Of a stretch of 64,000 nt of DNA, positions 15,467-49,759 are shown piece after piece. The position numbers and the translations under genes were made by a program. The DNA comes from Eledone cirrhosa (Eukaryota), in assembly GCA_964016885.1 (NCBI GenBank), contig CAXHJY010000018.1, forward strand, positions 1-64,000, written 5' to 3'. Each line of letters begins with the position of its first letter. Position 1 is the first letter of the stretch. Under the pieces are notes generated by a model. It did no database searches. It was not told the DNA's origin and saw only the letters and a list, made by a program, of their open reading frames with translations.

Positions 15467-15671
15467 AACTATATATATATGTGTTTGTCTATATTGTATC
15501 TGTATTATTTTTGACCGCCGGTCAGTCAATGGCAACATTGAGGACCGAGTAAGTTAGATCGCAGATACATATATATAAAAGACAGCGAGAAGCGAAAACC
15601 AACCAAACAGTGAGTGTGTTCTGTTATTAATTCTGGCAATATTACGCAAATATGACCCTCCCCAAATATAA

Positions 15672-15907
15672 AAATATATATGTATGTATATATATATATA
15701 TATATATGTATATATATATATATGTATGTATATATATATATATGTATGTATATATATATATGTATGTATATATATATATATATGTATGTATATATATATA
15801 TGTATGTATATATATATATATATATATATATATATATATATATATATGTATGTATATATATATGTATGTATGTATGTGTATATATATGTATATATATATA
15901 TATATAT
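15672..15907. repeat. (AT)n/(GTAT) microsatellite
   Basis: Direct reading. Confidence 0.95.
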
Positions 15908-16120
15908 CGTTTCTGAATTTGTTTAGCAAGATTCTTTATCTGAAATCGTGTGTTGAAACCGATATTGTTATACTTTGGGAGGGTCATGTTGCCAATAAGA
16001 AACACACGCACCAGTTGCTTTCACTTCAATTTAATTTAATATATATTTATAAATTTACAAATTTATAAATTTCTGGTTGGTTGGTTGGTTCCACAACCAG
16101 ATAGTTGTTTATATATATAT

Positions 16121-16165
16121 AGTCATAGTTCTTTCGTCACACACTCTGTGACCTCTTCAGTGACT
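16121..16165 (-). ncRNA. Type I hammerhead ribozyme motif (family B)
   Basis: Reverse complement of 17180-17224. Confidence 0.8.
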
Positions 16166-17179
16166 GGGGATTTCTTTCTTCGTTTCTGTGCCTTTCCTTT
16201 CTTCTATCCTACGCCATTTTGTTTGTGTGTGGGTTGCGTGCTCAGTTTGCGCATGCGCCACATCCGGGTGTCTGTGTGTGTTTGTGTTCATTTTTCTATT
16301 TTTCTATTTATATTTGTTTGTTTATTTATTTATTTATTGTTGGTTGGTTGTTTGTTCTATGTGTGTGTGTGTTTTCATTTTGTCTTGTGTGTGTTTTCAT
16401 TTTGTGTGTGTTTTCAATTGTAAGTTGTTTGTTCTATGTGTGTGTGTGTTTTCATTTTGTCCTTAATTGTAAGTTGTGATGTTGCTGTTCCACTCATATT
16501 TTCTATTTAATTTTGGTTTTAATTCTTTTATGCTTACTGCCTCTGTAATTTGCCTAAACATTGCGTCTTTCTTGTGTGTGGATTCTATTTTTATTTCTAT
16601 GCTCTCTAATTTACCCCTGTGTTCTATCTTACTCGTAGTATAGGGGAACGAATAAATGAACACTGGCGAGACCTCCAAGATAGTAAAGAATCATCTGTGC
16701 TCTACCAACATGCTAAGATAGAACACAGGGGTAAATTAGAGAGCATAGAAATAAAAATAGAATCCACACACAAGAAAGACGCAATGTTTAGGCAAATTAC
16801 AGAGGCAGTAAGCATAAAAGAATTAAAACCAAAATTAAATAGAAAATATGAGTGGAACAGCAACATCACAACTTACAATTAAGGACAAAATGAAAACACA
16901 CACACACATAGAACAAACAACTTACAATTGAAAACACACACAAAATGAAAACACACACAAGACAAAATGAAAACACACACACACATAGAACAAACAACCA
17001 ACCAACAATAAATAAATAAATAAACAAACAAATATAAATAGAAAAATAGAAAAATGAACACAAACACACACAGACACCCGGATGTGGCGCATGCGCAAAC
17101 TGAGCACGCAACCCACACACAAACAAAATGGCGTAGGATAGAAGAAAGGAAAGGCACAGAAACGAAGAAAGAAATCCCC

Positions 17180-17224
17180 AGTCACTGAAGAGGTCACAGA
17201 GTGTGTGACGAAAGAACTATGACT
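17180..17224 (+). ncRNA. Type I hammerhead ribozyme motif (family B)
   Basis: AGTCA-CTGAAGA-G-GTCACA-GAGTG-TGTGAC-GAAA-GAAC-TA-TGACT: perfect stem I (AGTCA/TGACT) and stem II, complete core. Confidence 0.82.
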
Positions 17225-45800: not shown

Positions 45801-46564
45801 CTGTAAAGACATTGAAAGTAAATATAGATCAATAACAAATGTCAGTATATTATATATTAAATATTCTATGCCCCACACACCATTTTCCTACTATGATAAA
45901 TTCAACAAAAGCACTACCAAGACTAGTGACCTGTTTTTTCACACCCTTGAAAAGGCTTGCTTAACACACAAACTGAAACTGCTTGGTGCTGCAGTTGGGA
46001 TTTTACATATCTCTATATGTATGTATATGTAGTAAAAAAAATCAGCGGATGTGAAAAAAGAAAACAGTGCTGAATCTGGTATGAGAGCTTATATATTGGT
46101 AATATAAACATTTGGGAGCACTTTTGTTGTGTGTATGGATATAATATAATATATAATATAATATTATATATATATATATATATTTATTAAAATAAAAGAT
46201 TAAAGTTTAAGCATATATCCATAAAGCAATTGGAATAGATGTAGTATAACATGCACAAATTGAAGTTATCTGAATACAGTATAAGAATATGATAAGCTAA
46301 TCTTAAAATGTCCATGACACAATATATTAATAAAGAGAGTCCATTACAATCGTAGAAAACAAATCAATGGGAATGTCTTATATTTTAGACACTAATAGCA
46401 AATATATTGCTGTATCTTTTAAATCACATGTGATAAGATGTGAATGAATAAGATAGAAATGTATGAGAGAGAGAGAGAGAGGGGGGGGGGGGGGAGAGAC
46501 ACCAGTATATGCATTCCTAGTAAGTCATCAAAAAGAGAAGATTTTTCCATTGAACTATATACAT

Positions 46565-46642
46565 ATAAGGTGTTCCAAATATGTATACACACTTCAACAC
46601 CATTATAATCAATATGTGTATACATTTTTTGGGGACACCCTG
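46565..46642. mobile_element. Short Tc1/mariner-like MITE
   Basis: Imperfect inverted repeats GGTGTTCCAAATATGTATACACA / TGTGTATACATTTTTTGGGGACACCCTG. Confidence 0.55.
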
Positions 46643-46737
46643 CATATGTGTGTATGTGTGTGTATATATATATATATATATATATATATACATACATATG
46701 TATGTATCTACATCTGCATGTATATCTGTCTATCTAT

Positions 46738-49306
46738 CCGGTCTTTGCGAGACCTGGATGGACGGGCGATTCTTGAGCCTAAGCAGATGTGTGAGGCCTT
46801 TCAAAGGCACTTTGCCCGACTGTTCGGGAGGGGCGGGGAGCCGGTTGGGAACGTGGACTTCGGTCCATACCTCGACGGCCTGCTGCGCCTCTCGGACAGG
46901 GAGGCGAAGTCCTGCGAGGAGCCGATTTCGGCCGCTGAGATAGAGGACGTGCTGAGCCAATGCGGCAAACGCAAATCCCCGGGTCTCGATGGTCTTCCTT
47001 ACGAATTATATCTAGCTATGCCGGACTTGTTCCCCGATCTCCTCGAGGCGGTCTACTGCAACTGGCAACAGAATGGGAGAATTCCCTGTACCGTGACCAA
47101 GGGCGTAGTCACGCTAGTGAGGAAGGACGAGAACAAGGGGGACGAAATAAGTAACTTCAGGCCCATAACTCTGCTAAATACAGAGTTACAGATTTTGGCC
47201 AAGGTGCTAGCAAAGAGGTTGGCGCTTGTCGTGGGCAACCTGGTGGGAGATGCGCAGACATGCGCTATCCCGTCCAGGTCCATCCATGACAACCTCCACC
47301 TCATGCGATACATCATAGAGAGGGTTGGGAACGAACCCGGCTTTGGTGGGGCTCTGATCAACTTGGATCAATCTAAGGCGTTCGATAGGGTCGACCATGG
47401 TTACCTGGATGCGGTGCTAGCGGCGGCAGGCTTCGGACCCGTTTTCAGGGGCTGGATCACTACTATGCACAGCAGCCGCATCTGCTCTAGGGACAAGGTG
47501 AACGGCTACCTCTCGGAGCCGTTCAAAATCGCGCGGTCCATCCGACAAGGGTGCCCTCTCTCCTCCCTTCTGTATGTGTTGACTCTCGAGCCACTACTGC
47601 GGAAGTTGGAGTTGTTGCAGGGCATCCCTTTGGAACCGGGATTGCGGAAAGCGGTGTCAGCCTACGCCGATGACGTGACAGTAATGGTGTCGACGGCCTC
47701 CGAAATCGAGGCGGTCGGCACCTTACTGGAGGAGTACGAAAAGTTCACAGGGGCTAAGCTGAACCGGGACAAGTCGATCGGTTTGCAACTCGGCACGTGG
47801 AGGGGCAGACCGATGCCCTCCGATGGCGTCGTCGGACGCTGGACGGAGGGCCCGGTGAAGTTGCTCGGGGTCTAGTTCAGACCGGACCTCCAGGTGGAGA
47901 AAAACTGGGCGGAGGTTACGAACAGGGTGTTTGCACTGACCCAGAAGTGGGCCAGTTGCAAACTATCCCTGAAAGGTCGGGCGGAGGTGGCGAACACTTA
48001 TATAGCGTCCGTCATCTACTACCGCCTGACCGTAGTGCCCTGCCCAAGGGAAACCCTCACCAAGATGGAGCGCGCGCTCTTCCAATTCCTTTGGAAGAGG
48101 CGGGCTCCTATGGTGAGGAGATCCATCTGCTGTCAACACCCTTCGAAAGGAGGGCTGGGGATGCCGTGGCTAATGATGCGTAAGCACGCATTAAGGCTAC
48201 GGCACCTCTACGTATTCCTCACCGGACAACCGGTGTGGGCCTCGTTTGTGAGACGAACCTTTCCCAGACTCGTCTCACTCACCGAGCTGCAATCCTGGGT
48301 CAAGCAAAGACCGAGAAAACTGGGCGCCTGGCACACTGAGTGTGCCCAGGCGCTCACCGCCCTCTGGCAGGCGGATCCGGTTATCAGTGGAGACTCCACC
48401 GCAACATTCTATAGAGGGCTGGTACGCAGCAGGTGCGACGACGCCCTTGGAGAAGCCCTAGACATGGAGGAGGACGAACTGGCCAGCCTGTTCGGTAGGA
48501 CATTCAGCCCGGGACCTATGGACAACTTCCAGAAGTCCCTGGCCTGGCAGTGCTACCGAGGGGCTTTACCCGTTCGAGAAAGGCTCTACAGACACGGGCG
48601 CCCGGGTAGGGACCCCGCCAAAAAGATCTGTCCCAGATGCGTGTGTGACGAGGAAACCGTTGCACACGCATTGGTACACTGCTCGGGCGTAGCCGATCTG
48701 TGGGGCTATGTCGAACAACTGCTGTCAAGGGTGGGACCGATCCGGTTGACCACCGAGTCTATTGTAATGATCAAGCCGCCTCCCCCCTTCAAAGATGAAG
48801 CAGAGGCGGTGTTTCTGTGCGTAATAGCCATGGCGAAAGAGGTTGTATGGTGGACGCGTCTGAAAGGACTGAGGTCAGGCACCTTTCTCTCTGGCCAACA
48901 ACTGGTCCGTTTCTTCCGATATCATTTCGGAAGAAGGATCAGGATGGAGAGAGAGGTGCTGCACCCCAGTCATTTTTATGAAAGGTGGGTGAAAGTGGCG
49001 AGAATGGCCCGTGTGAATGGGCCTTCTCTTTACATAAGCCTGTAGGTGGAAAAGAGGAAGGAACGAGGGAGCACCCCCTCTCTGTGCTCCTGAGGAAAAG
49101 GGTTGCACACTTTTTTCGGGGGTGTGTGCGACCCCCCAAGGCGCCTCCTCTCTATTGAGGATTTTGTTAAAAATTTTATTTTTTGTTATATCTTATTTTA
49201 TTTTTATATTTTGTTATTGCCTCCTCCGTATTGAGGATGCCTTTTTGTGTAAACTCCCCCCTTTGTACTTGTCCCACTTTTGATGCCCTAGTGGCAAATA
49301 AAAGAA
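46738..49306 (+). mobile_element. 5'-truncated L1/Tx1-like LINE: ORF2 RT plus C-terminal Cys/His domain, one in-frame stop
   Basis: KSPGLDGL, NFRPITLLN, LDQSKAFDRV, SIRQGCPLS, AYADD, CPRC...ETVAHALVHC; TAG at 47873-47875, frame continues to 49045; AATAAA at 49297; GC-rich. Confidence 0.93.
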
Positions 49307-49340
49307 ACATATCTATCTATATATATATATATATATATAG

Positions 49341-49759
49341 AAAGTTATATTTAAAATTGTTGGGTTACAACTAGTAAATATTTATAACTGATATAAAAGC
49401 ACTCGACAAATATTTGGAGTATATTTACAATATTAAATAAATGGAAACTATATTTATAAAACCATATCTATTTCATTATATATATTTCGGGGATATCATA
49501 TTAACAATATGCTATGCCTTCCTCAGACAAAATACAATATAAACAGTTTTATAGATAAATAGATTCGACATACCGTAACAACCTCTCCAAATGCAAGTCG
49601 GTGTTGTTACGGTATGTCGAATCTATTTATCTATAAAACTGTTTATATTGTATTTTGTCTGAGGAAGGCATAGCATATTGTTAATATGATATCCCCGAAA
49701 TATATATAATGAAATAGATATGGTTTTATAAATATAGTTTCCATTTATTTAATATTGTA
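49341..49759. mobile_element. Palindromic hammerhead-bearing PLE-end insertion (arms 49426-49582 and 49603-49759; motifs at 49469-49534 minus and 49651-49716 plus)
   Basis: 157-bp apparently perfect inverted repeat with 20-bp spacer; same family as 33160-33340; flanked by (AT)n. Confidence 0.82.

Follow-up and report, generated by a model that had tools for sequence, protein, structure and literature searches.

Inverted Penelope-like insertions in the window

The stretch analyzed here, called the window below, comprises bases 1–64000 of a 99-kb contig (CAXHJY010000018.1, assembly GCA_964016885.1) of the 3.0-Gb genome of Eledone cirrhosa. It is rich in (TA)n and carries an inverted and tandem array of Penelope-like elements (PLEs) belonging to one family, A, together with six smaller inverted PLE insertions. 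In these insertions one arm stops at a short site (S), and the other arm carries an additional tail that reaches a long site (L). We find that the pairing of one S end with one L end is nearly obligatory in inverted insertions and is seen genome-wide, though nearly all of our sample comes from a single contig, C1.

The family A array (1–15677), Neptune-type by motif, is built of a 4126-nt unit with a 1216-codon open frame. Its right end is an S end at 15677, and its left end lies beyond the start of the contig, which begins inside the array. Its units and arms are 99.9–100% identical (1–15677 and 4332–4334), which indicates that the array is very young. Family B is present twice. In the first copy (15905–17378), the L end is on the left, where the tail (15905–15961, minus strand) consists of the first codons of the open reading frame (ORF), and the S end is on the right. 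The second (34041–34856) has an S arm of ~675 nt on the left and an L arm of ~135 nt on the right, with a shortened variant of the tail (34802–34856, plus strand). The family C insertion (25631–28649), apparently Hydra-type, has its S end on the left and its L end on the right (tail ~28560–28649, plus strand). In the family D insertion (28702–31747), also apparently Hydra-type, a short L arm on the left (tail ~28702–28783, minus strand) faces a 2.75-kb S arm whose reverse transcriptase (RT) and endonuclease (EN) frames have decayed. Two insertions are stubs with the L end on the left and the S end on the right. That of family F (34974–35203) has a hammerhead core, CTGATGA...GAAAC, on both arms and a tail (~34974–35050, minus strand) inflated by a C run, and that of family E (49340–49759), again apparently Hydra-type, has its tail at ~49340–49427 (minus strand). 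Two further pieces end at S: a family E arm without an inverted partner (33160–33340, plus strand) and a solo fragment of family C (46180–46213, minus strand).

The short ends recur in independent copies. That of family B, AACAATAT, is present at 17378 and 34041, and its family A counterpart at 15677 has one C>A change. The family E short end is found at both 33340 and 49759, and that of family C at 25631 (with a 1-nt deletion) and at ~46185. A first-pass annotation of the window had described six inverted insertions, each with a one-sided extension, and had listed these recurrent short endpoints (B, 17378 and 34041; A, ~15671–15677; E, 33340 and 49759; C, 25631 and ~46185). All six insertions are present, within a few bases of where they had been placed, and all of the endpoints were recovered.

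Pairing of short and long ends, and the lengths of the arms

Ends were sampled without bias by means of exact anchors placed upstream of S. Genome-wide, the anchors match exactly in 5,012 (A), 24,809 (B), 25,513 (C), 3,192 (D), 2,907 (E), and 120 (F) places, and reversed anchors, used as a control, in none. We took the first 30 loci of each anchor search and regions from the first 100 listed places, mostly with diverging anchors. The choice of regions was blind to end type, and the fetched DNA amounts to 775 kb, almost all of it contig C1. Pairs were taken from this DNA and from listed coordinates. A DNA query that contains the tail favors long ends; the loci concerned (L001–L030) were excluded from the pair counts of families A–F, were used in later motif scans, and supplied 3 of the 15 pairs of a seventh family, G.

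The sample comprises 408 ends of families A–F: 208 S ends, 179 L ends, 17 that read through to the following unit, and 4 of no clear class. The windows used to class ends as S or L were broad, but the modes of end position are sharp: in family B, 39 of 41 S ends and 38 of 44 L ends lie at one offset each. Clustering of all TA-adjacent ends put them into a single cluster and was thus uninformative. The distance from S to L, the tail length, is 58 nt in A (with a minor site ~15 nt shorter), 60 in B, 82–88 in C, 80 in D, 88 in E, and ~65 in F.

The two ends are combined in a strikingly regular manner. Of 140 divergent inverted pairs in six families, 131 are S+L, 4 are L+L, 3 are S+S, and 2 are unclassifiable, with S+L pairs making up 25/26 in A, 34/36 in B, 19/21 in C, 17/19 in D, 29/30 in E, and 7/8 in F. 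When four pairs are dropped (two doubtful non-contiguous S+L, one duplicated S+L, and one duplicated L+L), 128 of 134 classifiable pairs are S+L (p=3e-31 versus 0.5). From coordinates alone, 19 of 22 further family B pairs at 22–42 Mb are S+L, two are S+S, and one is L+L, where L includes internal junctions. Genome-wide, the exact matches of this family comprise 12,706 S ends and 11,327 that are L or internal. In family G, by eye and with one complex locus excluded, all 15 simple inverted pairs are S+L. Random or symmetric endpoints would speak against the rule set out in the first-pass annotation; in the sample, both ends are fixed, with one S and one L in ~95% of the pairs. Of 89 unpaired ends in A–E, 49 look solo, 21 have a partner arm that lacks the anchor, and 19 lie at the edge of the fetched DNA. 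A minimal family B insertion near 23378900 on C1, flanked by TA runs, spans only ~35 nt and consists of two pieces fused to each other, one with the S end and one, inverted, with the L end.

One could suppose that each end is chosen independently of the other and that loss or mis-assembly later removes the symmetric insertions (L+L and S+S) from view. The instability of long inverted repeats gives this idea some basis. The classes differ, however, by only 58–88 outer bases, and the youngest family, A, with arms 0.13% apart, is as strict as the others (25/26). We regard selective loss as hardly credible.

What, then, is the long end? The first-pass annotation had inferred a two-ended integration with one end at a fixed short site, a mechanistic signature of PLEs, and had supposed that the long arm runs further into, or starts at, the true 3′ end of the RNA. 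The former part holds up, but the latter is not supported because L is as fixed as S and because the element continues beyond L at internal tandem junctions. In A and B the unit runs on past L into the ORF, from codon 26 onwards; in C, D, E, and G it runs through the 5′ untranslated region (UTR) as far as the ATG. Further, an S-primed cDNA cannot extend to L because reverse transcription proceeds away from the tail. L is a second fixed internal site. An internal start of reverse transcription has precedent in vitro in a PLE of the anole (PMC11167929). The extra segments are element sequence, as the annotation had taken them to be; other copies carry them too, and where units stand in tandem they lead on into the next part of the unit, except that the sample has no continuing copy of F.

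The lengths of the arms bear on how the second arm is made. The junction was mapped in 110 S+L pairs. Of these, 46 have an S arm that extends further 5′ and 38 an L arm that does so, and in 26 the two are equal within 15 nt. For such equal arms 8.2 pairs are expected, and 0 of 5000 permutations reached the observed 26. Where one arm is multi-unit (tandem), it is the S arm in 4 of 9 cases and the L arm in 5. By eye, 4 of 30 "solo" S arms carry an inverted piece of 10–20 nt that begins exactly at L. The window insertions had hinted that the S arm is always the longer; this was rejected (Wilcoxon p=0.18).

The arms also share rare variants, with 24 doubletons common to both arms of the same pair versus 1.9 expected (68 pairs). 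At the center, 65 of 106 joins have apparent inserts of more than 3 nt, in part a matter of mismatch with the reference. Short inserts are frequent, and some are palindromic or templated by nearby element sequence. Together with the absence of excess microhomology (see below), they suggest host end-joining.

In a fold-back scheme, patterned on self-priming (in passages of PMC3846280) and "EN-mediated resolution" (in passages of PMC8557442), an L-primed cDNA would copy itself, and the endonuclease would then trim the copy at S. Arms of equal length, shared variants, and the palindromic inserts found at many central junctions all fit such a scheme. But under it no L arm should be shorter than its S partner, and it is contradicted for the pairs in which the S arm reaches further (46 of 110). 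It also sits poorly with a 13-kb S arm beside an L arm of ~1.6 kb and with L arms of 10–20 nt, and an S-primed cDNA without a tail cannot template an L arm. Because the fold-back copy of an L-primed cDNA cannot outgrow the strand it is copied from, and because the tail is missing from an S-primed cDNA, each arm was most likely primed separately on RNA. Thus, the arm-length data argue against fold-back copying of a single cDNA, which we consider very improbable. Equal arm lengths and shared variants favor synthesis of both cDNAs on one RNA molecule, but two RNAs transcribed at the same locus, or gene conversion, would fit them as well.

The 5′ ends of the arms are themselves not evenly spread. 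In family E they cluster ~110–127 nt upstream of the anchor end at TCACTG, which we take to be an initiator-like motif and which is possibly a transcription start. Clusters also occur in A (~300), C (45–50), and D (80–90).

Clades, TA overlap, and a predicted twin hairpin at the two sites

As read by eye, the ORFs of A, B, C, E, and G contain RT motifs (YVDD or YRDD) and, at the C terminus, an endonuclease-like region of GIY-YIG type; Pfam gave only a sub-threshold RVT_1 match for A and none for G, E, or a fragment of D. The layout is that of endonuclease-positive PLEs, with tandem or partial-tandem units (pseudo-long terminal repeats, pLTRs), an inverted truncated copy, and a tail. Judged by such motifs against the criteria of PMC8557442, A and B are probably Neptune-type, with DKS (where DKG is expected), a C-X4-C-X2-C linker, and candidate C, C, H, H residues in the endonuclease. 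By the same approach, C, D, E, and G are probably Hydra-type: RWR and DKT are seen in C, E, and G and TWK and DKT in D, a CxCX5C linker in all four, and CxxC and CKH near the end of the endonuclease in C, E, and G. Family G would encode a Hydra-type protein of 717 amino acids. Family F, which yielded no ORF, is putatively Hydra by motif, namely its hammerhead core and a Hydra hairpin module (see below). Hammerhead cores (CTGANGA...GAAA) were found by eye in E and F and variant cores in C and D; an Rfam search of the window at E<=1 listed no hammerhead and only microsatellite-driven miRNA noise. The unit periods of 3.26 kb (C), 3.5 kb (G), and 3.8–4.0 kb (E) depart from the tendency of the Hydra clade to be <3 kb. 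No relative was found among viral contigs. Families A and B have a long insert between the N-terminal region and the RT, Asn-rich in A (8040–8624 of the window and other units), where it leaves the 1216-codon frame open, and Asn/Thr/His-rich in B (unit of L137). Similar N-rich inserts, at other positions, are described in Penelope elements of Adineta vaga in a passage of PMC3846280.

The target is (TA)n: pooled over A–E, a pure TA run of at least 6 nt lies beyond most ends, both S (84% of 187) and L (77% of 164), and the length of the run does not differ between S and L ends (p=0.63). Each site, in turn, ends in 2–4 nt of alternating TA/AT that match this target. In families A, C, D, E, and G, all 10 sites overlap the target by 2 nt or more (p=0.0009 for the summed overlap versus a local null), as might result from pairing of the primer or from repair.

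In C, D, and E, both S and L are followed, 2–7 nt on, by one copy each of a predicted hairpin module, RCTC-stem-loop-GAGY-(R/C)CTYT. In the window, module 1 lies 2 nt past the S site in family C (28563–28612, plus strand; GCTC...GAGC-CCTCT), 6 nt past it in D (28750–28775, minus; GCTC...GAGC-ACTCT), 4 nt in F (35021–35045, minus; ACTC...GAGT-GCTCT), and 5 nt in E (49396–49420, minus; ACTC...GAGT-GCTTT). In the Hydra-type families, the tail length equals the spacing of the two modules, and, once the TA overlap is taken into account, a start 6 nt ahead of the stem fits 8 of 9 sites. Each unit of C and of E has exactly two matches to the module core, where 0.10–0.14 are expected; in the reference copy of D, module 1 is mutated, and one stray core match lies inside the ORF.

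Family G, which lies outside the original finding, served as a blind test. Sixteen of its 17 S ends lie 5 nt before module 1, the predicted RCTC within 9 nt after L was matched in 326 places (98 of the 100 listed are one sequence), and 19 of 20 loci have a complete module after L. In predicted folds, RCTC pairs with GAGY in 17 of 18 modules, and the first stem pair is G-C in 14 modules and A-U in 3, with a single mismatch. A metagenome search returned nine loci with 36–39% protein identity. All four that hold the stretch from hammerhead to ATG have both modules, one of them with a first-pair mismatch. L334 ends 3 nt before module 1, near the end of its contig (S-like, as predicted), and L335 ends 2 nt before module 2, running into (TA)n (L-like, as predicted); L340 has module 1, L341 is cut off, and three loci lack the region. 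In the published supplement of PMC8557442, probed by exact-word search (the main word is in five places, two of them unrelated), the Hydra-1_Ajap consensus opens with both modules, a second consensus ends with module 1 and a short tail, and Hydra-1_Crog opens with a GCCC/GGGC variant.

The modules need not act as RNA. They could act as DNA, bound by the GIY-YIG endonuclease in a DNA intermediate that is cut ~6 nt upstream, thereby setting S and L. In keeping with this, the core sequence is highly conserved, and the D. virilis endonuclease, as cited in PMC11167929, required tail sequence to recognize and cut DNA. Against it, the changes that preserve pairing (G-C to A-U in 3 of 18 modules, and GCCC/GGGC in a published Hydra consensus) suggest a single-stranded structure, as do folded inserts of 8–67 nt, and the module that marks an end is never within the inserted DNA at that end. 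We therefore consider a DNA role quite improbable.

Other features of these regions deserve mention. At least six more TA-targeting families in the fetched DNA have a RCTC...GAGY-RCTYT module 30–70 nt before a TA run. Some near-full-length arms stop within or beside module 2 of the unit upstream, as would be expected if a module that is folded or bound made the RT stall (family C at C1:25242876–25246221 and 22090767–22094176, family D at C1:25285077–25289479). A single stem-loop across the tail that would link S to L was considered and rejected (folding z of +0.5 to −2.1).

The surroundings of the insertions are themselves repetitive. Interrupted (TA)n/(TATG)n tracts of >2 kb occupy 17375–19572 and 21206–22442 of the window, one of them flipping strand polarity near 18030–18410, and a 94-nt element end is duplicated at 19573 and 21960. 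A 408-nt direct repeat (23136–23543 and 25020–25424, 94.6%) lies beside TA runs and brackets a fragment of another RT element; the end of this repeat also adjoins PLE ends elsewhere on C1. A decayed 124-nt palindrome of an unassigned family (42049–42172, 77.5%) and the RT region of an unrelated non-LTR retrotransposon (46457–49045; open frames of 472 and 389 codons and a 3′ UTR ending at a TA run) are also present. At many loci on C1, different PLE families stand back to back in one (TA)n run, forming chains of unrelated elements with 10–60 nt of TA between them.

A proposed model of two primings on one RNA, and known systems

On balance, we lean toward the view that both strands of a cut (TA)n prime cDNA on one RNA, one at S and the other at L. 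A more specific version, to which we give slightly less than an even chance, is that the RNA of Hydra-clade PLEs has two docking hairpins that hold two RT active sites ~6 nt upstream, so that one ribonucleoprotein makes a double-strand break in (TA)n and primes both ends on the same RNA in a programmed manner, one per hairpin, with the second RT displacing the first cDNA. In the favored view itself, two protein subunits would dock on a tandem transcript, one per module, and the endonuclease would cut both (TA)n strands. Each 3′-OH would pair with UA/AU ~6 nt 5′ of a module, and both RTs would copy toward the RNA 5′ end, so that the cDNA begun at S is displaced by the RT that started at L. Host end-joining would then join and fill the two cDNA ends, producing a head-to-head repeat with one tail, and failure of one priming would leave a solo arm. 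The coupling of the two primings, the use of a single RNA, and strand displacement are inferred. In vitro data on the anole element supply the parts and support the model: cutting and extension of both strands, two start sites within the element, and a predicted dimer (PMC11167929).

Several observations weigh on the other side. First, ~5% of the pairs are L+L or S+S, several of them apparently genuine. Second, 32 doubletons cross pairs, 29 of these in family B, and both the shared variants and the arms of equal length might have another origin, namely a pair of RNAs from one source locus, gene conversion, or later loss of a spacer. Third, microhomology at the central junction shows no excess (mean 0.71 versus 0.69 nt in the 41 near-blunt joins among 106), and because of this a simple annealing of two cDNA ends is not supported. 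Fourth, the module core is absent from the units of A and B, which obey the pairing rule all the same; these families have a hairpin with one compensatory change after L and none evident after S. Fifth, the motif was defined post hoc, from C, D, E, and F, and its stem has only 4 bp with few covarying pairs. Finally, the start site of the anole element is reported to be non-homologous to the cut DNA (PMC11167929).

Some of these points would be accommodated if the two primings occurred at the same S and L but on two RNAs, or on two repeat units of a concatemeric RNA, in an asymmetric complex. Tandem units exist, L+L and S+S pairs occur, strand displacement is not needed, and a common source locus would suffice for the shared variants. 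Such a complex would, however, require an extra asymmetry to yield ~95% one-of-each pairing. In addition, both modules are adjacent on one stretch of RNA, and arms of equal length are in excess (26 versus 8.2). We think this arrangement unlikely, though less so than the other alternatives.

If the more specific version with two docking hairpins is correct, it would be an obligate two-primer route of integration that is distinct from target-primed reverse transcription of long interspersed nuclear elements (LINEs) and R2, and it would explain the PLE tail and the inverted repeats together. Near-strict S+L pairing with no tie to arm length speaks against simple fold-back and toward coordinated priming at both target ends. 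The twin hairpin is a small, mutable cis-element with a numeric prediction (a start ~6 nt upstream and a tail equal to the spacing) that is testable in the existing in vitro format, and it suggests that PLE start sites could be repositioned on the template RNA. The two sites also give a rule for annotating where such elements end, and some of these are very abundant (families B and C each have ~25,000 exact anchor matches).

A one-sided tail and two internal start sites are already published, whereas the pairing statistics, the arm-length argument, and the twin hairpin are apparently not: none of the three was found in open-licence PMC and bioRxiv full text, and passages of PMC13282606 and PMC4209133 contain nothing on a tail rule or hairpin. 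PMC8557442 counts the origin of PLE inverted repeats and of the one-sided tail among the open questions, and PMC11167929 leaves the steps after the first priming unvalidated. With the Hydra clade, as passages of PMC8557442 describe it, the Hydra-type families share RW[KR] and DKT, the CxCX5C linker, CxxC and CxH in the endonuclease, candidate hammerhead cores, and the (TA)n target. They differ in that their units are 3.3–4.0 kb, whereas the clade is generally <3 kb, and passages of that text make no mention of the modules.

The published PLE pLTR has the same inverted 5′-truncated copy beside the main copy, the same one-end extension that continues the unit, and the same preference for microsatellite targets (passages of PMC3846280 and PMC8557442). 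In those passages, the tail is an extension of 30–40 bp, optional or "often" at one end only, that is ascribed to endonuclease resolution or self-priming. Here it measures 58–88 nt, the pairing is ~95% exclusive, there is no tie to arm length, and, in the Hydra-type families, a cis-element stands behind each end. The closest experimental system is the Poseidon element PAc of Anolis carolinensis (PMC11167929), which in vitro likewise has two internal RT start sites bounding the tail, an AT-rich target, cutting and extension of both strands, and a predicted dimer. PAc is reported to start in an AC-rich stem-loop that is non-homologous to its target, and the main text is silent on S/L pairing per insertion and on an inverted arm. 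Here, by contrast, both sites match (TA)n by 2–4 nt, and in the Hydra-type families they lie in the 5′ UTR before the twin hairpins.

In twin priming of LINE-1, both target strands prime cDNA on one RNA, which results in an inversion. There, the second primer lands internally but at no fixed position, and no overlap exists between the two pieces. The likeness to the insertions described here is one of working only: both of their sites are fixed, 58–88 nt apart, and the two arms copy the same sequence.

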